This document shows, piece after piece, positions 12,302 to 64,000 of a DNA stretch of 64,000 bases. The notes under the pieces are model-generated. The model saw only the letters and a program-made list of their open reading frames with translations, was not told the DNA's origin and did not search any database. The position numbers and the translations under genes were made by a program. How positions within the stretch are numbered: the stretch's first letter is position 1; each line of letters opens with the position of its first letter. The stretch is from an uncultured virus (IMG/VR IMGVR_UViG_3300031963_000096). Lineage: Duplodnaviria; Heunggongvirae; Uroviricota; Caudoviricetes. The DNA lies in the IMG/VR virus record IMGVR_UViG_3300031963_000096. The stretch is one strand, 5' to 3'.

Positions 12302-13048
12302 ATGAAGATTGTTGTGGTATCTGGAGGATTTGATCCTCTACATTCGGGTCATATTTCTTATTTAAATTCAGCAAAAGCACACGGCGACAAATTAATTGTC
12401 GGTGTAAATTCCGATGAGTGGTTGATTCGCAAAAAAGGTCGAGCATTCATGTCTCTATTTGAACGTACTCGAATTTTACAACATATAAGAGAAGTTGACC
12501 ATGTTGTTGAATTTGATGACTCAGATGGTAGTGCTAAACACCTTTTACAAATAGTAAAACAAACTTGGCCGAATGATGAAATCATTTTTGCAAATGGTGG
12601 TGATCGAACACAAGATAATATACCAGAAATGTCGGTTGAAGGAGTAAAATTTGTTTTTGCTGTTGGTGGCGGAAACAAAATGAATTCATCATCATGGATA
12701 CTTGATGAGTGGAAATCACCTAAAACTGAAAGGCCATGGGGTCATTATCGTGTACTGTATGAATCAGAAAATACCAAAGTGAAAGAATTGACGGTAAATC
12801 CAGGTCAATCGTTAAGTATGCAAAAACATGAATTCCGAAATGAACATTGGCATGTTGTTGAAGGCACAGGCGTATTGTATGAAGAACGTAAAAGTTCTAA
12901 CGATACAATAACTTTATATAAACATAATCAAGTTACAATACCATGTGGTGTCTGGCATCGATTATCGAATGAATCAAATGATTTACTGAAAATTGTAGAA
13001 ATACAATATGGCCAAAAATGTCAAGAAGAAGATATTGAAAGAAGATGA
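12302..13048 (+). CDS. Cytidylyltransferase-like domain fused to mannose-6-phosphate isomerase-type cupin
   Basis: SGGFDPLHSGH (HxGH), ANGGDR; C-terminal ERPWG...LSMQKH..RNEHW...WHRL..EIQYG...EEDIER. Confidence 0.88.
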   Translation: MKIVVVSGGFDPLHSGHISYLNSAKAHGDKLIVGVNSDEWLIRKKGRAFMSLFERTRILQHIREVDHVVEFDDSDGSAKHLLQIVKQTWPNDEIIFANGGDRTQDNIPEMSVEGVKFVFAVGGGNKMNSSSWILDEWKSPKTERPWGHYRVLYESENTKVKELTVNPGQSLSMQKHEFRNEHWHVVEGTGVLYEERKSSNDTITLYKHNQVTIPCGVWHRLSNESNDLLKIVEIQYGQKCQEEDIERR

Positions 13049-13800
13049 AAGTAGCCGTAATTACACCTACAATTGGAGCTGACCACTTTGCTAAATGTTT
13101 AGAATCAGTTCAAAATCAAACATATGACAATCTTGTACATTATATTTTTGTTGACGGCAATCAGTATTTGGATATGGCTGATGGGCATATTAATAAAGTT
13201 GGAAATAGAAAACAAATATCAAGAATCACGCTTGAAGAAAACATTGGCAAAGGTTGGTACGGACATAGAGTTTATTCTGCTTGTTCTTTTTTGGTCAACG
13301 CTGACATTATTTGTTACCTTGATGAAGATAATTGGTACGAACCTAACCATGTTGAAGAATTGGTTAATGTCATTAAAGATGGAAATGATTGGGCATATTC
13401 TTTACGAAAAATTTATGACAAGCAAGGTGAATACCTCTGTGAAGATAACTGTGAATCGTTGGGTAAATGGCCTGTATATTTTAATCATGAAGTATTCCAT
13501 ATTGATACCTCCTCTTTTGCTGTTAAGCGTGATGTTGCTACTCGTATAGGTCACGCATGGTACGGCCAATGGGGTGCGGACAGACAATTCTTTGGTGCGA
13601 TTAAGCATCACTATCCAAAATATGATTGTTCACGCCAGCACACACTATGTTACAGATTAGATGGAAATCCTAATTCTGTGACGAAAGATTTTTTTGATCA
13701 AGGCAATTTTACAACAAACCAAAAATACAACGGTAAATATCCATGGAAAGAAGAACGGCTCTCATCACCGGGGGAAGTGGTTACCTTGGTAATCACTTAG
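13045..13800 (+). CDS. Family 2 glycosyltransferase
   Basis: VAVITPT, SVQNQTY, YLDEDNW (DxD). Confidence 0.85.
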   Translation: MKVAVITPTIGADHFAKCLESVQNQTYDNLVHYIFVDGNQYLDMADGHINKVGNRKQISRITLEENIGKGWYGHRVYSACSFLVNADIICYLDEDNWYEPNHVEELVNVIKDGNDWAYSLRKIYDKQGEYLCEDNCESLGKWPVYFNHEVFHIDTSSFAVKRDVATRIGHAWYGQWGADRQFFGAIKHHYPKYDCSRQHTLCYRLDGNPNSVTKDFFDQGNFTTNQKYNGKYPWKEERLSSPGEVVTLVIT

Positions 13801-14690
13801 CAAAAGACCTAAAACAAAAAGGTTGGGAAGTAGTAACACTTGACCGAAAAACCTGTAGTAACAAATATGTTGATTCACATTTTCGTGGCGATGTTCGTGA
13901 CGCCGATGTGTTAATGCAGATATTTGAAACATATCAGGTCAATACAGTTTTTCATCTTGCAGGTCGCATTGAAGTTGGTGAATCATTTAAAGATCCAACT
14001 TTATTTTATGATGTGAATCTTGGTGGCACCTGCAAACTTTTACATATGATGAAATTATATGGTGTTAAAAACATTGTATATTCTTCATCTGCTGCAGTAT
14101 ATAAACAACAAGGTCGTAACTTAAAAGAAGATGATGAAATCGCTCACAATTCACCATATGGTTATACTAAATATGCGTCTGAATGGGCCATCCGTGATTC
14201 GAATTTAAATTACGTTATTTTCAGATATTTCAACCTAGCTGGCGCAGATCCAGACAATGAATTTGGTGAGTGTCACAATCCAGAAACTCATCTAATTCCA
14301 CGAATTCTACAAAATCTAAATAAAGTACAAATATATGGAAAAGACTATCTTACAAACGATGGAACGTGTATTCGTGATTACGTGCATGTTTCTGATGTTG
14401 CCTCTGCCCATGCTGATGGGGCAGATTACCTCAATGCAAGCGGGCAATCCGTTATTCTTAACTTGGGTACTGGGGTAGGATACTCGGTATTAGAAATAAT
14501 TGGCAAAATTGAAGAAGTTACCAAGAAAAAGATTACCTATACCTTCCTCCCACGTAGACCTGGTGACCCGACCCGATTGGTTGCCGATGTTACTCTTGCC
14601 GAAAAAGTCTTGAATTTTCGGCCAAAGTATGATATAATGAACATTCTACAAACAGCACATAACTGGCAAACTACACAAAATGGCAAGTAA
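13743..14690 (+). CDS. galE: UDP-glucose 4-epimerase
   Basis: TGGSGYLG, FHLAG, SSSAAVY, YGYTK, RYFNLAGA, ETHLIP, DGTCIRDYVHV. Confidence 0.9.
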   Translation: MERRTALITGGSGYLGNHLAKDLKQKGWEVVTLDRKTCSNKYVDSHFRGDVRDADVLMQIFETYQVNTVFHLAGRIEVGESFKDPTLFYDVNLGGTCKLLHMMKLYGVKNIVYSSSAAVYKQQGRNLKEDDEIAHNSPYGYTKYASEWAIRDSNLNYVIFRYFNLAGADPDNEFGECHNPETHLIPRILQNLNKVQIYGKDYLTNDGTCIRDYVHVSDVASAHADGADYLNASGQSVILNLGTGVGYSVLEIIGKIEEVTKKKITYTFLPRRPGDPTRLVADVTLAEKVLNFRPKYDIMNILQTAHNWQTTQNGK

Positions 14691-40107: not shown

Positions 40108-42873
40108 ATGGCTTTTATTAAAGATAGATTAACTTTAAATTTTGATACCAGCAAGTTTGGTAGCGGACTGTTTTTAAGTTCTGAATCTCAAAACACTCTA
40201 AACAATTCTCCTAGCGGATTAAGTGAATGGCAAAGAAAAGAAATTGCTAATTCAGCAGTAGGTCTAACAAATTACTATAAAAATCCTGTACTGTCACAAT
40301 GTAATAGACTTTTAGCAAACACTACGAATATAAGAAATTTGTGTTTAGGTGATGTTGCTAACAATTATCCTTTAGCATCAGCACAAATATTAAGTCTTGC
40401 AAACACAGCAAATAATTTAATAATTCAATTAAATGAATTTAAATATCATACTGATAATATTTCTGGTTTGACAGTAACTATCTCTGATTCTGAAGCTGCC
40501 GATACATCTAATATTCCAAACTTTCAAAGTGCAGTAAGTATAGGTGCAGAAGCAACAAGAATTTTATATACAACCGAATCATTTAAAACTACAACTCCAA
40601 TATTAGGTAACTTTACTAGTATTTTTATTGGTGATGAATTAAATGCAAATAGCAATTCTCTTTACAGTAGTTATTCTTCTCTAAGTACTTTAGGGGCTTC
40701 AATCACAAGTACTCAAGTAAATAGTATTATTTCAAATTTGCAATCTGTAAATACTTTTATATACACTCGAAGAACATCAGATTGGAATTTTTTCAAAGAA
40801 GTAAAATCTGTTGTTAATGACTATTACACAGTTTCAAAATTAAACAATTTAGGTAACACAGAAAATTATTTAATAAAAAATTATATTGGTACAGATGCTT
40901 TAAAAGCAAACTTAAATAATGCATCTTCAATAGTACCTACAACAAGTGATATTGCTAACTTTTTTGCAAATACTGAAGCTACTGTAACTCCAGCAACAGT
41001 ATCAACACAACTTACTTCAGCAATAACTGCGGCAACTGAAGCATCTGATTCTGCTGCGTCTGCTTTTGATACTGCTAACGCAGCATACAATACAGCAAAT
41101 ATTAGTCTATCAATTGCAACATCAGCAATTAGTATTGCAAATAATGCTTTAGTGAATGCTTTAAATGCTGTTGATGGTGTTGCACGTTCAAGTGCTTTAG
41201 CTGCTTTTGACCAAGCAAATTCGGCCGCATCTTTAGCAAGTTCTGTACCTTCATTAGGCACTATTGCAACTGATGCTCAAATTTTATCTGCTAGTGCTTT
41301 TTCAAAAGCTAATGCGGCATCTTTTCATGCTGATAGTTCTTACATTCACGCCAACGCTGCTTTTAATACTGCTAACAATGCAACCGATACTTGGGTTCGC
41401 AATGCCGCCAATGCCGCAAGTTCTTACGCTAATGGTGCTTTTGCGGCTGCTAATGCTGCAAATACATTAGCTTTATCTGCATTTAATGCTGCTAATAATT
41501 CAATAGATACTTGGGTTCGCAATGCCGCCAATGCCGCAAGTTCTTACGCTAATGGTGCTTTTGCGGCTGCTAATTCAGCGATAAGTTCTGGTGTTTATGC
41601 CAATGCGGCTTTTGCGGCCGCCAATTCTGCAGCTTCTTCGTCAATAGATTCTTACGCACGAAATCATTCTAATGCTGCTTTCAATTTAGCCAATACAGCA
41701 TCAACAAGTACTGATACATACGTTAGAAATCATGCTAATGCAGCTTTTGAGGCTGCAAATACAAAACTATCTTTAAATGGTGGTTCAATAACAGGTAATC
41801 TAGTAATAACTGGAAATTTAACCGTATCTGGTAATGTAACAACAGTTAGTGCTAATAATCTTGTTGTTAATGATAATATGATTTATCTTAACAATAATAA
41901 TACTGTTTCTAATCCTGATTTAGGCTTTGCTGGTAATTATAATGATGGAACTTATAAACATTCTGGATTATTTCGTGATGCTACTGATGGAATGTGGAAA
42001 TTTTTTGACGGTTATACTCCTGAGCCTGATGCATCCCCTTACATTAATACTTCACATGCCAGTTTTCAACTTGGTACAGTAAATGCTCTTATACAATCTG
42101 TTTCTGTTGTATCTAGAGGTATAGATTTATTAGATCATTCAAATGGCGCTTTTAACACAGCAAATACATCTGACCAAAAAGCTACATCATCTGGAAGTTA
42201 CGCTAACTCATCTTACCTTCATGCTAATTCATCTTATTTTCACGCTAATGCATCTTTTGTTAGAGCAAATACGGCATCAAATACAGCAACTTCAGCTGGT
42301 TCTTATGCTAACGGAGCTTTTGAAACCGCTAACGCAGCTTCTGCTCATGCAACGGGAGCTTTTAGTACTGCAAATTCTAGAGTCTCATCTGTTGCAATAT
42401 CAGGAACAAATATAACGGTATCAGGAAGTCCTATAACTTCATCAGGAACAATAACACTATCTATACCTCAAGCAATAGATACAACATCATCAGTTCGTTT
42501 TTTAAGTTTAGGTATTGGAACAAATGCAAGTGGTACAACAGGAGAAATAAGAGCTACAAATGACATAACTGCTTTTTATTCAGATGATAGATTAAAGGTT
42601 CGTTTAGGATTAATTGAAAATGCTTTAGATAAATTAAACACTCTATCAGCATTTTATTATGAGCCTAATGATGTAGCTCAAAAATTAGGATATGAGAAAA
42701 AGAAATATGTTGGTTTATCAGCTCAAGAAGTGCAAAAAATATTGCCAGAAGTTATTAGAGAAGCACCAATTAGTTCTGAGTATCTAACAATTCAATATCA
42801 CAATATGATACCTTTATTAGTTGCTGCTATAAAAGAGTTAAAAGAAGAAATTGATAATTTGAAAAGTAGATAA
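40108..42873 (+). CDS. Tail fibre protein with Ala/Asn-rich repeats and C-terminal S74-type intramolecular chaperone
   Basis: HANAAF/ANAA repeats; AFYSDDRLK...GLSAQEV..ILPE...LLVAAIKEL. Confidence 0.8.
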   Translation: MAFIKDRLTLNFDTSKFGSGLFLSSESQNTLNNSPSGLSEWQRKEIANSAVGLTNYYKNPVLSQCNRLLANTTNIRNLCLGDVANNYPLASAQILSLANTANNLIIQLNEFKYHTDNISGLTVTISDSEAADTSNIPNFQSAVSIGAEATRILYTTESFKTTTPILGNFTSIFIGDELNANSNSLYSSYSSLSTLGASITSTQVNSIISNLQSVNTFIYTRRTSDWNFFKEVKSVVNDYYTVSKLNNLGNTENYLIKNYIGTDALKANLNNASSIVPTTSDIANFFANTEATVTPATVSTQLTSAITAATEASDSAASAFDTANAAYNTANISLSIATSAISIANNALVNALNAVDGVARSSALAAFDQANSAASLASSVPSLGTIATDAQILSASAFSKANAASFHADSSYIHANAAFNTANNATDTWVRNAANAASSYANGAFAAANAANTLALSAFNAANNSIDTWVRNAANAASSYANGAFAAANSAISSGVYANAAFAAANSAASSSIDSYARNHSNAAFNLANTASTSTDTYVRNHANAAFEAANTKLSLNGGSITGNLVITGNLTVSGNVTTVSANNLVVNDNMIYLNNNNTVSNPDLGFAGNYNDGTYKHSGLFRDATDGMWKFFDGYTPEPDASPYINTSHASFQLGTVNALIQSVSVVSRGIDLLDHSNGAFNTANTSDQKATSSGSYANSSYLHANSSYFHANASFVRANTASNTATSAGSYANGAFETANAASAHATGAFSTANSRVSSVAISGTNITVSGSPITSSGTITLSIPQAIDTTSSVRFLSLGIGTNASGTTGEIRATNDITAFYSDDRLKVRLGLIENALDKLNTLSAFYYEPNDVAQKLGYEKKKYVGLSAQEVQKILPEVIREAPISSEYLTIQYHNMIPLLVAAIKELKEEIDNLKSR
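41386..41574 (+). repeat. Exact 69-nt direct repeat, period 120 nt
   Basis: gatacttgggttcgc...gcggctgctaat at 41386-41454 and 41506-41574. Confidence 0.9.
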
Positions 42874-43950
42874 ATGCCTTTACAGTCATCTGGCCAAATA
42901 TCAATGTCGCAGATCAATACTGAGCTTGGTCAATCCTCTTCAGCCCAAATTTCTTTAGGATCAGCTACCGTTAGATCACTTTTGGGTGTTTCAAGTGGTG
43001 CAATTTCTTTAAGTAATGCATATGGCAAATCATCAAGTTTTTCTGCGCCAGCTGTTACAAGTAGTTTGACAAATGTGAACTTACGAACTTTACTTTTATC
43101 TCAGGGTTGGGATGGCACATCAGCAGTAATATTTACAGTTAACGCTGGAGTTTACATTTATTCAACATCAACAGGAACACCAGCTTTAACTATTAGCGGT
43201 TCTTGGCCAGGTGGTCTTTCAATAGTTAATAATGGATTTATAATTGGTTGTGGTGGTCAAGGTGCAAGTTTCAGTTCAATTCCTGCTTCTCATCTTCCTG
43301 GAAGTCCTGGAGGAGATGCCATTTCCACAAGTACAAATCTTACAATTACAAACAATGGTTATATTTGTGGCGGTGGTGGAGGTGGCGGTGGATCTTCATT
43401 AGGTACATTAAGTGGAGGGGATGTAATATTCATAGCTGCTCTTGGCGGCGGCGGAGGCGCCGGAGGAGGTAGTGGTGGAAATACTGTTAGAGGACCCAGC
43501 ACAGTAACATTTACGGGTGGAGCTGGAGGAGGTATTGGCGCCGCAGGATCAAACGGCCAGGGTGCAACTGATTTTCAGAATACTGGTACAGCTGGCGGCG
43601 GCGGAGGCCGAGTTCTTCCAGGTAGTGGTGGTGTTTATTCTGCCTACGGCGGCCAAGGCGGTGGAGCCGGTGGAGCAGGAGGTGACGGAACTAGAATCCT
43701 TTCAAACAATTTTGGCGGAGGTTTTCCTGCCGGCAATATGGGATCGGGTGGTGGAGGAGGTTGGGGAGCTTCTGGAGGTAACGGAGGAAGTGCAACTCCA
43801 GCCGGATCAGGAGGAAGTTCTAACAATGCAGGCGGCAGCGGAGCTGGAAATATCACAGGATCAGGTGGTGCCGGTGGTCGTGCAATAAGACTTAATGGCA
43901 ATTCTGTTACTTGGACGAATTTTGGTACAACTTGGGGTTCTGTAAGTTAA
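42874..43950 (+). CDS. Glycine-rich receptor-binding adhesin (T2/S16 gp38-like)
   Basis: IVNNGFIIGCGG, NNGYICGGGGGGG, repeated GGGGG..GGG motifs, terminal GGAGGRAI...W...G..WG; follows the fibre gene. Confidence 0.75.
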   Translation: MPLQSSGQISMSQINTELGQSSSAQISLGSATVRSLLGVSSGAISLSNAYGKSSSFSAPAVTSSLTNVNLRTLLLSQGWDGTSAVIFTVNAGVYIYSTSTGTPALTISGSWPGGLSIVNNGFIIGCGGQGASFSSIPASHLPGSPGGDAISTSTNLTITNNGYICGGGGGGGGSSLGTLSGGDVIFIAALGGGGGAGGGSGGNTVRGPSTVTFTGGAGGGIGAAGSNGQGATDFQNTGTAGGGGGRVLPGSGGVYSAYGGQGGGAGGAGGDGTRILSNNFGGGFPAGNMGSGGGGGWGASGGNGGSATPAGSGGSSNNAGGSGAGNITGSGGAGGRAIRLNGNSVTWTNFGTTWGSVS

Positions 43951-56800: not shown

Positions 56801-57097
56801 ATCCATGTATATTATAAAATACTTTCTGGATCTGATTCCACAACATTTAAAGACCGTCCATATCAAAAGATGGAATGTTTTAACCCATCTACAACCGCAT
56901 CTCTAACAGAAGATGATTTTAGAGAGTTTGAATATAGGCCGTCATTAACTTCTGATTCGGTAACATATACTTCAACAAATGGTGGTACATTTGATTCGTT
57001 TAAAACATTTGCTATTAAAATTGTTTTAACAACAAGTGATCCATCAATTGTTCCAAAAGTAAAAGATTTTCGTGTAATTGCTTTACCATCAGGTTAA
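50900..57097 (+). CDS. Very large virion structural protein (DUF4815/VrlC-like)
   Basis: PYFDDFD..KNY.RVLFRPG..VQARELTQLQ, LARRTFEESGNY.V, DPMAQTF; 2065 aa. Confidence 0.8.
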   Translation: MTTFFNYDPYFDDFDEDKNYMRVLFRPGYSVQARELTQLQTILQNQIEKFGNHIFKNGSPITGGKISLDDRAFYLILNSQYENEDIDVSLFLDKTIISYNSSKTVRAKVIAVDDTTTNPILILKYLSADFFNEEDEIKIFGQNIFAQVKDTSAVGRSYVASIQDGVYYFKGNFVKIVPQFLVLELFYKVGYNATTINKKPTYKVGIEFEENIVDEIDDTTLLDPAQGASNYQAPGATRYEIATRLSKRTLDSADESSFFEVIRLVDGVKTKEIDYPVYSEIEKTLARRTFEESGNYTVDPFVLSLEEEAYDANNTLDSNSFTAVLDPGKAYVGGYEVQTIAPTRIQIPRARQTSNVSDYDLPTNYSSFVVLANTTGTLDISSFPELDIHCTPHTTIDFSSTNAYNSTKIGTLRANMMKYNDASSSVLGSTHTFTVNVFDVSSKPITGTVLTVGSTNTVIELDAATSTGSQANCYANMYFRITDGAGQFLAPILIRESNSISQTVTLSQALPFIPSSNTYSIESDFKVARSISQKSGSSKIFAADVGSDSKDSTTGFSFITEPTKTSLVFDTPFESMKSGSISNFDFYARKLYSDNLSDGTGQMTISTTGTDTFDFAGSPGTLSDNQILNNIICFIRYNSTSNSTSGIAPNTVVSLANNLFTVTAISNTSITVDFDTAGVRADFIITTKVNNAENGTTGAIRGKQLLPLSNTSHEKVPYNLDTAGDSLDFANTGSVINITDGLVFEDIGATFINGANTIAQLKTPGTVVSLQVPDIYEIVRITDSKSTTTNVTTAMLTNDDHDVTSHYEFDNGQRKTHYDHATIKLKRGYSSPTGSSLLIQYKYLKHQAAPSPQNEGLFTVDSYLKTGSNFTYNEMSKFLSNEDGKLISLRSCLDFRPTRTIASNTFFGAVNVDPDRTAELSFEYYLSRIDRLVVKPSKEFSVLSGKSAVSPIPPPVDTNDMLIYTLDIPPYTETVKEIKAEFKNNKRFTMNDIGSFEKRIKGLEYYVALTSLEKNAADSKVLDADGLERSKYGILVDNFTNRDVQSTYGDVGFDNRNLIEEGELKPASLMRTFKMKWSSANSSGSYAAIGVNDQKSLMLNYTTSSFASQPYATKFVPVANALFANFKGTMRLFPEYTGDVDTGHTARVTLNSTQGLDNAFNFINEAFKFISDQNPTWVNDKDNPFAKVVDTKWFETVTTVDNSTVQLGRREFGNLQTTTDRVYISKGAELNMKQISSSTSQVDVGTFVTDLAIQPYLKPRDITFTASSLKPNARYYAFFDGVNIDQYVVVPSKIKVLSGVNSNSVFISGELAIIANNGTELNSFIASYQSGGTSYRMVVVTNSERGSSNVSVVNETGLALTGSKVIWGVDSKSVYGIDSVLEHKSGLTRGITSSTITLAPDAPSVNIAGNTITFVHRSGSSDGYGAVYNVIAYNTSTKVATIQETTSSVEQSSTWVYSIGVNRANKLGQVSGVFYPPAATFRNGERVLRLTESFNNTYDEDAISFAEKSYVSSGIKVNKTNLVNTVYNVDVGVKFVGNASSPLLQSTAVRQEITSTWRVDPMAQTFFIDPEVYPNGLFVENVKLFFANKDEDNIPVSVQIRPTVNGLPSSDFIYPESIVTKYPFEVNTTTSPNFNSSSNYTKFTFASPVFLKAGLYALVVLTDSPSYSLWVAEKGATTTGNQYVSVNPYVGTLYKSQNAMEYVPYLNEDLMFDMDRCIFSSSPATFILENERQSAKYNIDKFRLITRQLETQSDTPFTIDYKFKSKMAGGAKETAYRDLIPFVTYSMGDDDLYTVGNRRKDIENQGDFSVSLTISTTDNAVSPLVSLESIFLNAWENFVDNAEITVDDFNIITPGGGYSNSNVVTITSNTGTGALVYLVTNGAQGNVIGLNVASSGSGYYDDFSISVPGTGFGTITSNAEIVLNSEYDSSGGPCLARYITKPITLADGFDAGDLRVFLSANRRGVSDIHVYYKILSGSDSTTFKDRPYQKMECFNPSTTASLTEDDFREFEYRPSLTSDSVTYTSTNGGTFDSFKTFAIKIVLTTSDPSIVPKVKDFRVIALPSG

Positions 57098-57098
57098 T

Positions 57099-57326
57099 AT
57101 GAAAATACCTGTAAAAGGAACAAACTTTGTTAAAGACACATCAAGTGGTGCTCTTTTAACGGTGAATCGTGGAGTTTTGTTAGAAAATGAAGCCAGATTA
57201 CGTTTGAAATCAAAATTAAATTCAAAAAATGATGAAATAAATAATTTAAAAATTCAAGTGGATTCTTTAAATAAAGATATTGGTGAAATAAAAAATATGT
57301 TACAACAGTTAATTAAGAGAGATTAA
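57099..57326 (+). CDS. Small coiled-coil protein
   Basis: Follows the large structural gene; C-terminal heptads. Confidence 0.6.
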   Translation: MKIPVKGTNFVKDTSSGALLTVNRGVLLENEARLRLKSKLNSKNDEINNLKIQVDSLNKDIGEIKNMLQQLIKRD

Positions 57327-57334
57327 AGTACCAA

Positions 57335-60300
57335 ATGACTATTCCTATCATAACAAGAACGAATACCATTGATGAATGGCGAATTCAAACAAATTTGTCA
57401 GCTATAGAATTAAATAATTTAAAAGCTAACAATTATACAAAATCAAATGGTACTTTAGAATTAGCTAACAACTCTGTACTTTTAATAAGTGCAAACGGTA
57501 CCGCACTCCAAGTTTCAAATAGTGCTTTTATCGGTAGAAATTTAGCAGTAACAAATAACGTTTCTGTTGGTGCAGTTGGTTCTGGTGTTGGTAATGTCTC
57601 TATAGGTAACTCTGTTTTGATTGCTGGACCCGGAGAAGCAGTTAACGTTTCAAATAGTGTTTATGTTGGTGGCAATAGCAATGTTAGAGGCAACGTGTAT
57701 GCGAACAATGCAGTTGTCAATAATTCTGTTTATGTTGGTGGCACCGCTAACGTTGCTGGTATTGTTACACTATCAGGAACAGGTAAAGTATTGGAAGCAA
57801 ATACTGGAACTGTATATGTTAATAATGCATATCTAACTACTGCAACACTAGATCAAGCAAACGTTGAATTGATCTATGCTCTTGAAGCTAAAATTGACAA
57901 CCTTTCTGATATTGCTTCTGCTGTAATTGGTATTTTGCGTGTAACAACAGGTAATATTTATTATCTAACATCGAACACTTTATATGCTAATACTGGAACG
58001 ATCAGAGATTTTGTTGCAAACAGCACAGGTAATGTAGTAACACTTATATCAAATGTTGCAACAATTAATACCGCAACTATTGGTAACTTAAACGCAACAA
58101 ATGGTACGATTATCAATGGTAATGTAGTAACACTTATATCAAACAATGCTACTTTAAATACATCTACTTTAGTTAATATAACAGTAACTAACGCTGCAAT
58201 TGCAAATGCCGTTATTTCTTCGGCTGCAATTACGACTGGTCAAATTACAAATGGTACAATTACAAATGGTACTATCATTAATGGTAATATAGTTACTTTA
58301 ATTTCAAATAGTGCAACACTTAATAATTCTACATTGTTAAGTTCAAATGTTGTTTCTGCAAATATTATAAATGCTAATGTTTCTGGTAATGTAAACTTTA
58401 CCAATGGATCAACATTAAGATTTAATTCTGGATCAGCAAATGATGCTCTTGTTGTAGATTCAGGTATAACCTCTTTACAGACTGTCGTTGTTGAAGGAAA
58501 CTTAACTGTTGCTGGAGTATTTACTCAAACAGGTAATATTAATTTTGAAACAGATAGATTCATTTTCAATGCAAATACACCTGACAATAAAGATGCGTTG
58601 ATTGTTAATAATAGAATTTACGGAAATAATGCACAGATTGTTTGGAACGAAACCAATGATCGATGGGAAGTTTCAACAGGTAATACTTGGACAACAACTT
58701 ATAAGATTTTAGATGGCGCAGACATTTATACAGGTGTTGATTCTGATAGTACAACACTTGTAGCTTCTGCGAGTGCTGTTAAATTTGCATATCAAGCTGG
58801 TGGTGTTGTAGCCGGTGGCTATGCTAATGCAGCTTATAGACATGCCAATTCTGCATTTGTAAGTCAAAATACAACAGGTGTTTATGCCAATACTGGATAT
58901 GCTCATGCAAATTCAGCACATGATGTGGCAAATTCTGCTTTTAGTGGAGTAAGTGGTACACATGCAAATGCGGCCTACAGACATGCAAATTCATCTTATG
59001 CACATGCAAATACGGCTAATGTATCTGCTCAAGCTGCCTTTGATGCGGCTAACAATGCTTTTGCAGCTGGTGGTCAATTTGCTTATAGACATGCTAATTC
59101 AGCACACGATATTGCAAACTCAGCTTTTGCTGGAACAACAGGTACTCATGCCAACTCAGCATATTTTACTGCAAATACCGCTTTAACAAATGCTGAAATT
59201 GCTGACCAAAAAGCTGTAGCAGCTAATACTAGAGCCGCTTTAGCTAACGTTCATGCAAATGCCGCATATAATTTTTCAAACACAATAAACAACTTTGCTT
59301 TTCATGCTTATACTCATGCTAATGCAGCGTTTGCTCGAGCAAATACAGGAATTACATCTACTGGAGGTACTATAACAGGTGATTTAACAGTTAATGGAAC
59401 ATTGAATGCTACTGGAGCTTCAATTTTTGCAAATGATATGAAAATTGCAGATGGAATTATAACACTTAATTCTGACATATTACAAACTGCATCACCAATT
59501 GAAAATGCTGGATTAGAAATAGATCGAGGCGCTTCACCTAATGTATTCTTTTTATGGGATGAAACTTCCGATAGGTGGAGATTTACAAATGATGGTACAA
59601 ATTATCAAGACGTTGCAGGTCAAACAACAATTAATTCATCTTTAGCCGCATATGTACCTTTAGCAGGTGGAACCATGACTGGTTTCTTGACTCTGAGTGC
59701 AAGTCCATCAAGTGCGATGCATGCTGCTACAAAAGCTTATGTTGATGCTACAATAGGATCAGCAGACCTAACAAATTTAAATGCTTCAAATTTAACAAGT
59801 GGTACTGTTCCAGTTGCTCGCTTGAGTGGATTATATAATATCAATGTTAATGGTAATGCTAACTATGCAACAACAGCTGGATCTGCCACAAGTGCAACGA
59901 CCGCTAGCACCGCTTCCAGTTTAAATGGTGGTAATATTCAAAACTGTACTGGTTTCGCACAAAGTAGTGGAGCATTTTCAATGACCGGAAGTTCTTTCGG
60001 TGTAAATCCCTATGCACAATTTTATGGAGGCATAAGATCTTTTGCTGATATAAATGCATCTGGAGCAAATATAACAGCAAGTACTTTTTATGGTAATTTA
60101 AGTGGAACAGCAACACGAGCTCTTTATGGTGACTTGGCAGAAAAGTATCTAGCTGACGGCGAATACGATGAAGGTACCGTAATGGCCATAGGCGGCGAAA
60201 AAGAAATAACAGCAGCAACAATTGCCAACTTTAGAGCTCTAGGTGTAGTATCATTGAGACCTGCACACTTAATGAATGCTGATTTGGAAAACGGAACAAT

Positions 60301-60478
60301 TGTTGCTTTAAAAGGTAGAGTTCCTGTAAAAGTTATAGGCAAAGTAATCAAAGGTCAACCTTTAGGATTAAGTAACATAGCAGGAGTAGCAAGTGTTAAT
60401 GAAATGAATTACTTTGCATTATCTCTGATAGATAAGAACGATGATGGTGAAGGTATAGTCGAAGCAGTTATTTTATAA
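57335..60478 (+). CDS. Tail fibre protein with G2-type intramolecular chaperone
   Basis: TIDEWR N-terminus, beta-rich and HANSA repeats, GLEIDRG..W.ET.DRW, C-terminal GDLAEKY...GRVPVKV. Confidence 0.75.
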   Translation: MTIPIITRTNTIDEWRIQTNLSAIELNNLKANNYTKSNGTLELANNSVLLISANGTALQVSNSAFIGRNLAVTNNVSVGAVGSGVGNVSIGNSVLIAGPGEAVNVSNSVYVGGNSNVRGNVYANNAVVNNSVYVGGTANVAGIVTLSGTGKVLEANTGTVYVNNAYLTTATLDQANVELIYALEAKIDNLSDIASAVIGILRVTTGNIYYLTSNTLYANTGTIRDFVANSTGNVVTLISNVATINTATIGNLNATNGTIINGNVVTLISNNATLNTSTLVNITVTNAAIANAVISSAAITTGQITNGTITNGTIINGNIVTLISNSATLNNSTLLSSNVVSANIINANVSGNVNFTNGSTLRFNSGSANDALVVDSGITSLQTVVVEGNLTVAGVFTQTGNINFETDRFIFNANTPDNKDALIVNNRIYGNNAQIVWNETNDRWEVSTGNTWTTTYKILDGADIYTGVDSDSTTLVASASAVKFAYQAGGVVAGGYANAAYRHANSAFVSQNTTGVYANTGYAHANSAHDVANSAFSGVSGTHANAAYRHANSSYAHANTANVSAQAAFDAANNAFAAGGQFAYRHANSAHDIANSAFAGTTGTHANSAYFTANTALTNAEIADQKAVAANTRAALANVHANAAYNFSNTINNFAFHAYTHANAAFARANTGITSTGGTITGDLTVNGTLNATGASIFANDMKIADGIITLNSDILQTASPIENAGLEIDRGASPNVFFLWDETSDRWRFTNDGTNYQDVAGQTTINSSLAAYVPLAGGTMTGFLTLSASPSSAMHAATKAYVDATIGSADLTNLNASNLTSGTVPVARLSGLYNINVNGNANYATTAGSATSATTASTASSLNGGNIQNCTGFAQSSGAFSMTGSSFGVNPYAQFYGGIRSFADINASGANITASTFYGNLSGTATRALYGDLAEKYLADGEYDEGTVMAIGGEKEITAATIANFRALGVVSLRPAHLMNADLENGTIVALKGRVPVKVIGKVIKGQPLGLSNIAGVASVNEMNYFALSLIDKNDDGEGIVEAVIL

Positions 60479-60497
60479 TCTAGGAAAAAAATAAATT

Positions 60498-61922
60498 ATG
60501 AATCAGCCTTTAAATTTTTATGCAAAAAAATCTATGAAAGGAAATCCTCATGTTTTTGATGATTACTTTCAATTGAGTGCTTTAACAATTACTGTAACGA
60601 GCGCATGTAATTTACATTGCGATTATTGTTTTGAAGAACATGAAAGTAGGTTAATAAAACCCGATGAAGTAGTTGACATTATTGATGTTGCATATAAGAA
60701 TTTTAGAAAAAATAATCCTACTGGTTCAATGCCATTATCTTTTTTTGGTGGTGAACCTTTTATCGCATGGAAAACTATTCAAAGATGTATTGAACACGCT
60801 AAAGAAAAAGGTTATGATCTTTCTGTTGGCATAACAACAAACTTAACTTTGTTGACTGATGAACAAATGGAGTTCATTGATGAGAATGATATTGGTTTGT
60901 TAGTTTCAATAGACGGCACCAAAGAAGTTCATGATAGATTACGTGATAATTCTTATGATGTTGTTTCTAAAAATGTCAAAAAACTAATAGACAATGGCAT
61001 GAAAAGGTTAATAGAAGCTCGGATGACAGTTCCGCCAGGTGAATTTCATAATCTTTTAGCTGGAGTTCAAAACATTTTTTCTTTAGGTGTTGATAACATT
61101 GCTCCTGTTCCTGTTACCGATCAAGTTTGGACTAAAGATCAAGTTAAATTATTAGAAAATGAACTTGATAAATTGTATGAATGGACAATTTCAATATACG
61201 AAGATCCAAACAATAAAAGAAACATTAGTGTGAAAATGATTGATGATTATTTGTTTCAATGCATACATGACGAATTTGATATGAAAGGTACACCTTGTAG
61301 TTTTGGAAGTAATAAATGGCTGAGTATAGGTCCTAGTGGTGAAATGTATCCATGTCACCAAATACATACACGAAAAGATCAACAAGAATTGTTTTACATG
61401 GGAAATATTTTAAAAGGTGAAATACTTCCACATAGAATTTTAGGTCAGGTTTTGCCACATTCATGGAAAAAAGCTGACGATCCAGAATATACATGCGACA
61501 CATGTGAGGCATATAATATTTGTAGAGGTTCTTGCCCAAGTGAAAACTATGATTTAAATAAAGATTATTTAAAAACTCCAGATGAATGGTGTGATTGGGT
61601 TAGAATGTCAAAACGAATCACGAAAAAATACCAGAATCAACTTTTAAATAGTAAAAATTTGAGAAATAAAAGATTAAATTCTATAAAACTAAATTTAGAG
61701 ATTATGGAAATGATTGATAGGGTGAGAGAATATAATGTATACTCCCGAGAATTTCCTCTTGTTGTTCTTGATTTATATGAAAAAGTTTTAAGTTGTGAAC
61801 ATAATTTGTTACCTGGTTTTTCTGACTTATCAAAAAATAAATTAGCAAAATTTAGAGAACAACTAACACAAATTAGAGATGAATTAATTAAAAAAGAATC
61901 AATGCAAAAGGAAACAGTTTAA
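60498..61922 (+). CDS. Radical SAM/SPASM domain maturase 1
   Basis: CNLHCDYC (CxxxCxxC), FFGGEP, TTN.TLL, VSIDG; SPASM CSFG...YPCHQ...CDTC....CRGSCP...C. Confidence 0.93.
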   Translation: MNQPLNFYAKKSMKGNPHVFDDYFQLSALTITVTSACNLHCDYCFEEHESRLIKPDEVVDIIDVAYKNFRKNNPTGSMPLSFFGGEPFIAWKTIQRCIEHAKEKGYDLSVGITTNLTLLTDEQMEFIDENDIGLLVSIDGTKEVHDRLRDNSYDVVSKNVKKLIDNGMKRLIEARMTVPPGEFHNLLAGVQNIFSLGVDNIAPVPVTDQVWTKDQVKLLENELDKLYEWTISIYEDPNNKRNISVKMIDDYLFQCIHDEFDMKGTPCSFGSNKWLSIGPSGEMYPCHQIHTRKDQQELFYMGNILKGEILPHRILGQVLPHSWKKADDPEYTCDTCEAYNICRGSCPSENYDLNKDYLKTPDEWCDWVRMSKRITKKYQNQLLNSKNLRNKRLNSIKLNLEIMEMIDRVREYNVYSREFPLVVLDLYEKVLSCEHNLLPGFSDLSKNKLAKFREQLTQIRDELIKKESMQKETV

Positions 61923-62521
61923 TGGGTACCTCTGTACATCAATCACAAAATACGATCATCGAAAACGATGATTATAATCCAAATACTGAAAATGATGCTT
62001 GGAATATTCGAAGAAGATATGTTGGATTAGCTGCCATTTGGAGTAATCCAAACGCTGGAGATACTGGTTGTGCTAGAACGCAAACATATAGTACGTCCAT
62101 AAGAGTTAGAAAATTTTCAGATGCTGGAAGACCTTATAGTGATGGTACTATTCTTGGTCTTACTGTAAGACAGCCTGTAGACAATCAAGAAATTTTAGCT
62201 ACAGATTTAGATAATGCAAGACGAATTATCAATGAAGGTGTTGCAGCTGTAAATCAATCTTTTTTAAATTCAACAACTGGATTTATTAATCCAGCTTCTG
62301 GGTATGCAAGTCGAGATCAAGAAATTTTAGCTTCACACATCAATAATTTAATTAATACTATTATAATCACAGAAACTAAGTTAGACATATACAATTCATA
62401 TTATGATGGAGCTGACTTATGTCAAAGAAGTTGCCAAATACAATGTCAGACAGCATGCCAAACAAGTTGTCAAGGATGTAATACTTCACAATGCCACAAT
62501 CAAAAATGTGGAGTGCATTGA
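61922..62521 (+). CDS. Putative radical-SAM substrate: 199-aa protein with C-terminal Cys-rich SCIFF-like tail
   Basis: C-terminus CQRSCQIQCQTACQTSCQGCNTSQCHNQKCGVH; coupled between two rSAM genes. Confidence 0.75.
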   Translation: MGTSVHQSQNTIIENDDYNPNTENDAWNIRRRYVGLAAIWSNPNAGDTGCARTQTYSTSIRVRKFSDAGRPYSDGTILGLTVRQPVDNQEILATDLDNARRIINEGVAAVNQSFLNSTTGFINPASGYASRDQEILASHINNLINTIIITETKLDIYNSYYDGADLCQRSCQIQCQTACQTSCQGCNTSQCHNQKCGVH

Positions 62522-62522
62522 T

Positions 62523-63848
62523 ATGTTTGATGTAATTTCCAAAGTAACATTAAAACTCAGCACATATTGTAATTTAGCTTGTGAGTATTGTCATCAAATG
62601 ACTGATGATAAAAAACATCATGTTACTTTTGAAAAATATAAAGAAATGTATGACTTTTTACTAAAGACAAATTTGTCTGATGTTGTTGAAGTAACTTTAA
62701 CTGGTGGAGAAATTTCCCTTTTAGAAGAAGAATATGAAACAGCTGTAAAATGGTTCAGAAAGATTGAAAGACAGAGAGATGTAAAGTTTACTTTTGCTGT
62801 TGTTTCAAATGGTACAAATATAAAACAATTATTTAAATTAATAAAACAAGGTGATTTAAATCCTAAAAGAACAACAATTAGTTGGGATGGATTATACACC
62901 ATGTCAAAGAGTCGTAAAAGTAAATTTGAAAAATTCAATGATGATTTCTTTAAAAATGTTGTTACTGAAATTGGCCAAAGTCCATGGGCAAAGCAATTAA
63001 ACATTACACATGCAATAACACCTACTACCATCCCTTATTTACACGATAGTTTAGTTTTTGCTTTAGATGCTGGTGTAAAAAATTTTGGTTTTTATTATAT
63101 ACATGAAGCCGATTATAGCGACAAAGAATTTTTAAAAATTTATGATGAACAAGTTACAAAATTAGGTGAAGAATTTGTAAAACGATATGAAGATTTGTCA
63201 ACAAGATTTGTTTATTATAATTGGCAATTATTATATGCTAAAGAAAATTTGCCAACAGATAACAAAGAATTAATGAGAGCCACAACTCTTTGTCACAAAT
63301 TAGGAAGAACGGTGCATTTTGACCCATTAGGTGACATTTATGGTTGTATTTATTTTGGAGACCATAGAGCTCTAAAACTAGGTGATTTGGAAAATGGTAA
63401 TATAGATAAAACGAAATATCAAAAATTTAGTGATCAATACTTCGAAATGCCAGGTTGCAAATTAGATAGTTGTGGCAATTCACATTGTTTTGAATGTCCA
63501 GCAAGTAACTATGTACATAAAGGAAAAATGGCGAATAGATTTAGTAACACATGCGAAATGTTATCTATTGAAAAAAGAATTTACTATGATTTAAAACCTA
63601 AACTTAAAATAGATGAATTTGATAAAGCTTTTTATTGGATGGAAGAAGATCATTTAGAACAAAAAAACTATGATGATAAGTATGAAACATATTTAAATGA
63701 TATAGTAGGTATACCTTTAACTGAGGAAGCTTATGTTGAAGATGATGAGTACTCAAATAGATTAAGTCCAACGTATAAAAATGTTGTTACTTGGATGAAA
63801 AAAACTCCTAAGAAAAAAGAATTTACTCTAAATTTAGAAACCATATGA
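62523..63848 (+). CDS. Radical SAM/SPASM domain maturase 2
   Basis: CNLACEYC, LTGGE, SNGT, ISWDG; CHKLG...GCIY...C....C....C..CP...C; true start ATG 62523. Confidence 0.9.
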   Translation: MFDVISKVTLKLSTYCNLACEYCHQMTDDKKHHVTFEKYKEMYDFLLKTNLSDVVEVTLTGGEISLLEEEYETAVKWFRKIERQRDVKFTFAVVSNGTNIKQLFKLIKQGDLNPKRTTISWDGLYTMSKSRKSKFEKFNDDFFKNVVTEIGQSPWAKQLNITHAITPTTIPYLHDSLVFALDAGVKNFGFYYIHEADYSDKEFLKIYDEQVTKLGEEFVKRYEDLSTRFVYYNWQLLYAKENLPTDNKELMRATTLCHKLGRTVHFDPLGDIYGCIYFGDHRALKLGDLENGNIDKTKYQKFSDQYFEMPGCKLDSCGNSHCFECPASNYVHKGKMANRFSNTCEMLSIEKRIYYDLKPKLKIDEFDKAFYWMEEDHLEQKNYDDKYETYLNDIVGIPLTEEAYVEDDEYSNRLSPTYKNVVTWMKKTPKKKEFTLNLETI

Positions 63849-64000
63849 AAAAGAAGTTTTCAAAAATAGGTTCTAATATCAATCATGTTTATCTTATGAT
63901 GACAGAGGCTTGTCCTTTAGATTGTGAATACTGTTACATAAAAGATAGAAAAACAAAAAACAATGTAAGTGATGAAGATATTGATACTTTAATAAATGCT
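63845..64000 (+). CDS. Radical SAM enzyme 3, N-terminal fragment (truncated by window end; not in ORF track)
   Basis: ATGA overlap; MKKKFSKIGSNINHVYLMMTEACPLDCEYCYIK has CxxxCxxC. Confidence 0.85.
   Translation, partial: MKKKFSKIGSNINHVYLMMTEACPLDCEYCYIKDRKTKNNVSDEDIDTLINA

Follow-up and report, generated by a model that had tools for sequence, protein, structure and literature searches.

We report a conserved gene cassette in a 64,000-nucleotide stretch of DNA from an uncultured tailed phage (IMG/VR record IMGVR_UViG_3300031963_000096). This stretch, in the following termed the window, constitutes the first part of a 71,548-nt virus record that is ~37% complete. The cassette comprises four genes coding for radical S-adenosylmethionine (rSAM)/SPASM enzymes, a gene for a protein of 199 amino acids (aa) with a Cys-rich C-terminal tail, two helical helper paralogues and ErpA, and it is placed between fibre-like genes. 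It is a real and conserved entity, which constitutes a variant of a known chemistry in a biological role that is absent from the papers searched. In our interpretation, to which we assign a probability of about 0.55, the enzymes share the stapling of the tail by Cys-to-Gln/Asn thioethers, by which they would mature a monomeric virion adhesin or fibre cap. Taken separately, it is very likely that the enzymes act on the co-encoded 199-residue protein and likely that this protein is a part of the virion, whereas the assignment of the modification as intramolecular thioethers, which draws on analogy, is probable with slightly less confidence.

Organisation and conservation of the cassette

The contig contains baseplate, tail and replication genes that identify its source as a T4-like phage, which was recovered from a freshwater setting. 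The cassette and its surroundings are organised as follows, with positions beyond 64,000 referring to the contig.

57335..60478, plus strand: fibre-like protein, 1047 aa, assigned by sequence repeats and position, with a C-terminal DLAE-motif domain
60498..61922, plus strand: rSAM1, 474 aa, radical SAM domain, seven-Cys SPASM domain and C-terminal three-helix extension
61922..62521, plus strand: Cys-tail protein, 199 aa, predicted three-helix bundle and C-terminal Cys-Gln ladder, likely substrate
62523..63848, plus strand: rSAM2, 441 aa, radical SAM domain and a SPASM-like region whose seven Cys are atypically spaced
63845-65134, plus strand: rSAM3, 429 aa, Radical_SAM and SPASM (TIGR04085) domains; the window holds 63845..64000
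65118-66350, plus strand, beyond the window: rSAM4, 410 aa, Radical_SAM and SPASM (TIGR04085) domains
66362-67513, plus strand: helper U383, without family assignment, paralogue of U401
67517-68722, plus strand: helper U401, without family assignment, paralogue of U383
68715-69050, plus strand: ErpA (NF010147, 165 bits, cut-off 117)
69099-69431, plus strand: fibre-assembly-like gene (phrog_3304, E 2e-20)
69634 to contig end, plus strand: further fibre-like gene (tail-fibre PHROG matches, E 6e-6 and 1e-3)

The genes are tightly packed. A gap of 19 nt separates the end of the fibre-like gene at 60478 from rSAM1, whose open reading frame (ORF) overlaps that of the Cys-tail protein in TAATG, a single nucleotide precedes the ATG of rSAM2 at 62523 and rSAM3 starts via ATGA, all of which confirms the coordinates and junctions described in a first-pass annotation of this DNA. 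An alternative start of rSAM2 in the ORF list, at 62403, would overlap the Cys tail. The same annotation had correctly recognised the start of a third rSAM gene but counted three enzymes, where the full contig contains four, and the gene that it took for the last of the tail-fibre genes is followed, behind the cassette, by the fibre-assembly-like and the further fibre-like gene. Sigma-70-like sites occur at chance level (74 vs 73) and no plus-strand terminator was found between the fibre gene and the cassette. Parts of the region 57000-64000 are contained in five freshwater RNA runs, with shares of 0.53, 0.17, 0.13, 0.10 and 0.09 that do not constitute a measure of expression.

The linkage between the enzymes and the Cys-tail gene extends to a large number of big phages that are unrelated to each other. 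A search with the pattern of the tail has identified 93 places in viral contigs and four in 185,579 prokaryote genomes, the latter including one outside any ORF, one on a phage-like contig and two on short contigs. With six earlier loci added, a tail ORF is present in 102 of 103 loci, three of which represent this phage's own population. An rSAM1-like gene is located upstream of the Cys-tail gene in all 78 loci with at least 1.5 kb of flanking sequence (within 30 nt in 63 of them), and two to five rSAM genes are found in each of the 58 fully flanked loci. In one record with terminal repeats, a cassette of three enzymes includes exactly one gene for the substrate. As a control, rSAM genes were detected in none of 51 loci with a chance match to the motif and in seven out of nine loci with a real ladder. 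Since the 83 full-length substrates fall into 16 clusters at 50% body identity, and thus into about 16 lineages, these counts are not independent of each other. The proposal of a dedicated post-translational modification system, which the first-pass annotation had tied to the affiliation of the enzymes and to the co-occurrence of their putative substrate, is sustained by our results, as the enzymes group with peptide thioether maturases rather than with enzymes modifying cofactors or DNA bases, and as the Cys-tail gene accompanies them in every well-flanked relative.

The helper family is present in all 66 loci with 9 kb of downstream sequence, as detected with a hidden Markov model (HMM) built from the same loci. 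U383 and U401 are 27% alike over 159 aa, show no family match above cut-off in Pfam, NCBIfam or PHROG, and have TPR-like Atlas neighbours that remain below the bar for naming. The region encoding them (66362-68722) has a G+C content of 21%, compared to 34% for the contig. ErpA is not conserved in the cassettes of relatives. Some cassettes contain HNH endonuclease genes directly 3' of the substrate gene (L093:10198-11867, L161:8979-9848), and a homologue of rSAM2 (P0181) carries Pfam domains that we take to be of the intein/LAGLIDADG type.

Radical SAM enzymes and their putative substrate

All four enzymes contain a CxxxCxxC motif and seven further Cys and score above the Pfam cut-off for Radical_SAM, with 38.4 bits in case of rSAM2. 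The SPASM domain model TIGR04085 is above its cut-off for rSAM3 and rSAM4, and rSAM2 shows a weak match to TIGR04119 at residues 235-391. Among the top 25 NCBIfam models considered for each protein, PapB is the best for all four (180.5, 96.7, 106.7 and 87.6 bits for rSAM1 to rSAM4, cut-off 340), while the SCIFF maturase model scores 125, 53, 58 and 44 bits (cut-off 425). The best solved relative of rSAM1 is CteB, both by sequence (E 6e-25) and by fold (E 9e-19). In this enzyme, the residues C37/41/44 and C267/286/333/336/342/346/365 are invariant in 18 orthologues, and its predicted structure, with a predicted template modelling score (pTM) of 0.85, contains C-terminal helices at 391-469. The PapB model and the CteB structure thus support a grouping of the enzymes with thioether-forming peptide maturases. 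None of the four offers room for an N-terminal recognition element (RRE) of the kind found in the biosynthesis of peptides that are synthesised by ribosomes and modified after translation (RiPPs), as only 15-36 residues precede the SAM motif, and such an element is absent from the model of rSAM1. A stand-alone PqqD match was found neither in the 37% complete record of this phage nor in the record G001.

The four enzymes share a pairwise identity of only 18-25%. A quick tree of 82 sequences, taken from 20 representative loci and from outgroups, separates them into orthologue groups that follow their role in the cassette. The rSAM1 group (support 99) is found in 20 of the 20 loci, rSAM2 (Shimodaira-Hasegawa-like approximate likelihood-ratio test, SH-aLRT, 100) in 18 and rSAM3 (support 94) in 19, and the rSAM4 group (support 100), which is the sister of rSAM3, in four. 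Three of these groups are maintained across T4-like and phiKZ-like phages, from which we infer an old division of labour instead of a recent duplication.

The Cys-tail protein has no match in Pfam, NCBIfam or PHROG, including the SCIFF models. Its Cys-Gln ladder encompasses residues 167-196, with C167-171-175-179-183 placed at every fourth residue. In 31 aligned homologues, whose bodies are variable, the last 33 residues are almost invariant and the eight Cys among them are fully so, and the coding strand of this 71.5-kb contig contains no other ladder of such kind. For both reasons, the ladder is not a product of chance. A profile search has expanded the family to 125 representatives of 71-950 aa. 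The full tail pattern fits 93 of them, with a His, which is part of the pattern, in 100%, followed by Asn or Asp in 91% and by Gln in 95%, while 32 fall outside the strict pattern. Five ladder Cys are present in 104 of the 125, within a range of 3 to 15, and the ladder is usually followed by the fixed end C-x2-C-x4-CH[N/D]QxCG. At 384 ladder positions, the residue next to Cys on its C-terminal side is Gln in 94% and Met in 4%. In seven out of seven comparisons, the tail was 52-88% identical compared to 19-32% for the body.

The model of the 199-residue protein (pTM 0.71) contains helices at 21-41, 93-113 and 137-160 and a tail whose pLDDT score (predicted local distance difference test) is below 50. 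Internal repeats in three segments of the body were detected by hhalign at 90/77/33%, compared to controls near 0. A search of its fold against the PDB gave no clear match, with generic helical bundles at best (Z 8.6, root mean square deviation 3.3, 128 aligned residues), and a profile search of PDB sequences returned nothing significant. The best viral fold matches in BFVD are members of the family itself. Weak matches to uncharacterised rudivirus proteins in rows 4-9 (E 0.03-0.1) are not significant. Its sequence shows no evident signal peptide or membrane segment.

Among 107 relatives scanned for domains (12 of 119 new ones, mostly short, were left out), 19 match CBM5/12, F5/8 type C, Gly-rich or PHROG tail families, six of them above a Pfam cut-off. 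The longer relatives accommodate these extra domains either in front of the conserved helices of the scaffold or between them, and in some paralogues a shortened ladder in the middle of the protein is followed by another domain. The body is thus predicted to be a three-repeat helical structure that tolerates inserted sugar-binding and tail domains, and the family appears, as judged from these arrangements, to be a modular scaffold with swappable cargo instead of a leader-core peptide.

Fibre genes and genomic context

In the contig of the window the cassette lies among fibre genes, in the relative L076 it is found behind a tail fibre and in a clade with phiKZ-like RNA polymerase subunits it is flanked by weak matches to tail families. 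The label of the 1047-aa neighbour as fibre-like rests on its repeats and position; the protein shows no Pfam match and its only PHROG match, phrog_22593 at 917-1023, is of unknown function. Its equivalent in L076 matches tail-fibre PHROGs. The homologous DLAE-type domains of L075 and L076 match Peptidase_G2 below cut-off only (E 0.002 and 0.037), and the C-terminal domain of the window fibre itself has no such match. As a lead below the cut-off, this domain may act as an intramolecular chaperone of the G2 type. The 1047-residue protein is a candidate docking partner of the Cys-tail protein.

The fibre gene and the cassette have features of a common inheritance. Upstream, the related records L003 and L069 show 645 and 122 differences to the window over 5.3 and 1.3 kb of compared sequence, with a divergence of ~12%, whereas over the 8.6-kb cassette at 60479-69050 they do not contain a single mismatch. 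The identity switches near 57,580, inside the fibre gene, and a patch of 24 differences is found at 58,471-58,663 in L002 and L069. This pattern suggests that fibre and cassette have moved as one block in a recent exchange, although an assembly chimera may be an alternative cause of the switch.

A conventional fibre tip is encoded in the same window at 40108-43950, where a gp37-like fibre with an S74 chaperone is followed by a gp38-like adhesin. In T-even phages, gp38 is a small variable adhesin that caps the gp37 fibre trimer and is encoded behind this fibre, which bears a C-terminal chaperone. The Cys-tail protein would resemble gp38 as a small variable adhesin encoded behind a fibre, and some members of its family contain a Gly-rich domain. 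However, the Cys-tail protein has no GP38 match and gp38 contains neither a Cys ladder nor dedicated enzymes. The window also encodes heptose kinase/adenylyltransferase-like and nucleotide-sugar epimerase genes at 12302-14690.

Proposed mechanism, alternatives and related systems

In the mechanism that we propose, the cassette would be expressed together with the fibre genes and its enzymes would obtain their 4Fe-4S clusters from ErpA and the host. The substrate would be held by the TPR-like helpers, the helical extension of rSAM1 or both, in place of the missing RRE. Each enzyme would abstract a hydrogen from a side-chain carbon beside an amide, which would be C-gamma in case of Gln and C-beta in case of Asn/Asp in the terminal H-[N/D]-Q-x-C, and the resulting carbon would be coupled to a Cys thiol bound at an auxiliary cluster with an open site. 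Each of the three conserved groups of orthologues might handle different motifs, namely the repeating QxxC ladder, QxC and [N/D]xxC, and the stapled tail could provide a rigid, reduction-proof end that seats a pseudo-threefold monomer on a trimeric fibre or another site of the tail. We infer the tail as target, bonds of the non-alpha thioether type and Gln and the terminal Asn/Asp as acceptors, while the presumed role in the virion rests on the inserted domains, the genomic context and the three-repeat body.

These assumptions have precedents. NxxcB forms a link between Asn and the Cys located three residues further along and also accepts Gln and Asp (PMC8326336, PMC9389541), PapB couples at the carbon beside the carboxylate of Asp/Glu (PMC12373016), and in CrpC a seven-Cys SPASM domain leaves an open site for a chemistry that acts on a full protein (PMC13692751). 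The register of the known cross-links varies, with the acceptor located three residues before the Cys in case of NxxcB or five after it in case of SCIFF (Cys32-Thr37, with Thr34 also reported; PMC8326336, PMC9389541).

Several observations weigh against stapling of a virion protein. As no enzyme is above the cut-off of any maturase family in NCBIfam, the thioether chemistry is extrapolated, and models of DynA and cyclophane synthases score on the enzymes too. An acceptor of the PapB/QhpD kind is lacking, as there is no Asp/Glu within the six residues that follow any tail Cys, and the register of cross-links cannot be read from the sequence. A binding domain cannot be recognised in the window's own Cys-tail protein, and 88 of the 107 relatives lack any match to a family of tail proteins or adhesins. 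Directly 5' of the cassette, the late-promoter motif TATAAATA is not found in its exact form. No cultured carrier was found among 50,697 phage records, where tblastn with two substrates, a tail fragment and four enzymes has found no orthologous cassette, although the low-complexity filter may hide the tail; a search for related loci returned only this phage's own population. Finally, in the L110/L177 clade, the cassette resides between thymidylate synthase and DNA ligase, away from tail genes, which speaks against a link to the fibre operon being obligatory. The attachment to a tail-fibre module emphasised by the first-pass annotation thus applies to the window, to L076 and, loosely, to the phiKZ-like clade, and fails in this one.

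A more far-reaching version, which we advance tentatively and consider doubtful, is an assembly line of the RiPP style, where three to five specialised rSAMs would turn the Cys-Gln ladder into a connector of several thioether rings, which might be riveted to the fibre and could serve as universal socket for swappable receptor-binding domains. If true, it would define a new class of virion maturation, in addition to a ladder of Cys-to-Gln thioethers and to enzymes that cross-link proteins without an RRE.

Among the explanations that depart from thioether stapling, the least unlikely regards the Cys/His tail as a knob on a virion protein, with free thiols and a binding site for metal or Fe-S, in which case the enzymes would help to build the metal site or modify residues other than Cys, such as His, Gln, Asn or, in the form of cyclophanes, the aromatic-x-Asp motif before the ladder. 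An invariant His beside Cys, the conserved W/Y-W/F-D preceding the ladder, the matches to DynA and cyclophane-synthase models and the presence of ErpA in the operon are all consistent with this view. Conversely, thioether synthases rank first for all four enzymes, metal binding would not need a near-invariant Gln in fixed register with each Cys, and the length of the ladder is variable.

It is improbable that the helical body is merely the long leader of a classical RiPP, whose tail, once modified, is cleaved to release a small cross-linked peptide with a function as signal, antibacterial or anti-defence agent. The combination of a variable body with a conserved tail would fit, as would a resemblance to SCIFF that is reflected in a weak match in one of the 107 relatives and in the automatic UniProt name 'Six-cysteine peptide SCIFF' of a relative. 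However, no protease, transporter or PqqD/RRE is seen in the cassette, bodies reach up to 950 aa and include sugar-binding and tail domains, and in paralogues with a shortened mid-protein ladder another domain follows. The ranthipeptide/SCIFF-like substrate of the first-pass annotation does not persist in light of a folded protein of 199 aa that contains no CX3D/E motif, and of its two suggested outcomes we favour the virion component over the RiPP-like product.

Similarly low is the chance of intermolecular thioethers by which the cap protein would be riveted onto the trimeric fibre or onto paralogous subunits. While the three-repeat body would suit a trimer tip, several paralogues occur in some cassettes and fibre and cassette are inherited as one block, the putative acceptors Gln and Asn/Asp are found within the tail itself and the 1047-residue fibre contains a single Cys, with no conserved acceptor identified. 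The cross-links in the protein precedent CrpA are intramolecular (PMC13692751).

Less probable still is a modified protein that acts in or on the infected cell, in anti-defence, exclusion or as scaffold, instead of in the virion. This would account for the clade that keeps the cassette among replication genes and for the lack of a tail-family match in the window's Cys-tail protein, yet P0057, an L177-type protein of the same clade, bears a PHROG tail-protein domain and there is no evident signal peptide or membrane segment. Finally, it is very improbable that DNA bases, cofactors or proteins of the host are the targets of the enzymes, with the Cys-tail gene as passenger. Weak matches to QueE-like, MoaA and viperin models, which arise via the shared core, would fit, but SPASM peptide maturases score far higher and the linkage to the substrate gene is invariant and includes the single substrate gene in the three-enzyme cassette of the relative with terminal repeats.

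The proposed thioether stapling of the tail places the cassette next to several known systems. With the ranthipeptide maturases PapB (freyrasin) and CteB (SCIFF), which provide the top HMM and structure matches, it shares the radical SAM core, the seven-Cys SPASM domain and an adjoining substrate with Cys repeats. In contrast to these, the enzymes score about half of the cut-off or less, lack an N-terminal RRE, are phage-borne and number four divergent enzymes for one substrate, which is a folded protein with Gln at places where PapB uses Asp/Glu. CrpC/CrpA of Methanococcus voltae and QhpD/QHNDH resemble the cassette, as interpreted here, in the action of a SPASM enzyme that forms non-alpha thioethers in the Cys-rich C-terminal region of a full protein, and CrpA contains a C-X-X-Q/D motif that is akin to the tail, whereas CrpC is a single enzyme with an RRE and without virion context (PMC13692751). 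The full-size Cys-rich protein beside the enzymes, a feature of both systems, is found in the cassette, although rSAM1 fails the respective models (57.6 vs 525 for TIGR04463 and 141 vs 453 for TIGR03906, QhpD). NxxcB/NxxcA, a streptococcal RaS-RiPP system, resembles the cassette by motif, as its amide acceptor three residues before Cys matches QxxC and [N/D]xxC of the tail, and it differs by a single cross-link on a short peptide. In the CXXX-repeat system (maturase TIGR04115, TIGR04119 and target PF27846), Cys at every fourth residue are likewise encoded beside an rSAM/SPASM enzyme. TIGR04115 scores 84, 56 and 61 bits for rSAM1 to rSAM3 (cut-off 350) and is not among the top 25 models listed for rSAM4. 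No NCBIfam model matches the substrate at E 0.1, and PF27846, which the scanned copy of Pfam may lack, is assigned to a neighbouring Atlas cluster with a score of 0.86 that serves as lead only. The substrate of the cassette is distinguished from this target by its usual five ladder Cys, the fixed end motif and the helical carrier domain. Judged by these comparisons, the cassette appears to work like a ranthipeptide or CrpC-type system while residing outside the PapB, SCIFF, QhpD, TIGR04463 and TIGR04115 families, as shown by scores below the cut-offs, the missing RRE and the different kind of precursor.

In the literature searched, from which subscription journals are mostly absent, we found neither a phage cassette whose rSAM enzymes act on a virion protein nor thioether stapling on a virus particle, and a term search of a jumbo-phage review (PMC7824862) gave no hit for 'radical' or 'SPASM'. 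Precedents for the stapling of full proteins with thioethers by radical SAM enzymes are few and include QHNDH and archaeal CrpA. If our interpretation is true, widespread phages of the T4-like and phiKZ-like types would depend for the assembly of their virions on oxygen-sensitive enzymes and on the iron-sulfur supply of the host, and the stapled proteins would be easily missed by standard proteomics. Four divergent RRE-less enzymes for one tail of 33 residues would also offer a compact and testable model for division of labour and a source of new peptide-stapling catalysts.

Other phages encode Cys-rich proteins in comparable surroundings. In Salmonella phage SPN3US (JN641803; L179:3094-4123), three unannotated Gly/Ser-rich ORFs with CxxxC ladders (130, 134 and 68 aa) lie between virion gene 167 and the rSAM genes 164/163, where the annotated gp166 is an overlapping ORF in another frame, and gp182 of Erwinia phage Wellington (L080:5549-6175) contains 23 Cys. 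The enzyme has matches in 63 phage records. In two papers on SPN3US, including six supplement files for one of them, a term search found no mention of gp163, 164, 166 or 167. These ladder proteins belong to a different family, yet they are a cultured model for the same idea. A second, unrelated cassette is found in a fibre operon of G001 (L180:2847-12728), which comprises a gene with the DLAE-type domain of the window fibre (38%), a protein of 215 aa with Cys/Ser runs at its end, a neighbour of similar appearance and about six short rSAM-like ORFs. This Cys/Ser-tailed protein and ORF074 of RP12 have no detectable homology to the Cys-tail family of the window. Long CxxxC-ladder proteins, several of 1,100-1,400 aa and with up to 191 Cys, are located mostly beside a single rSAM gene in L022, L029, L033, L036, L037 and L065, and the rSAMs of L022, L033 and L036 form a separate clade in the quick tree.

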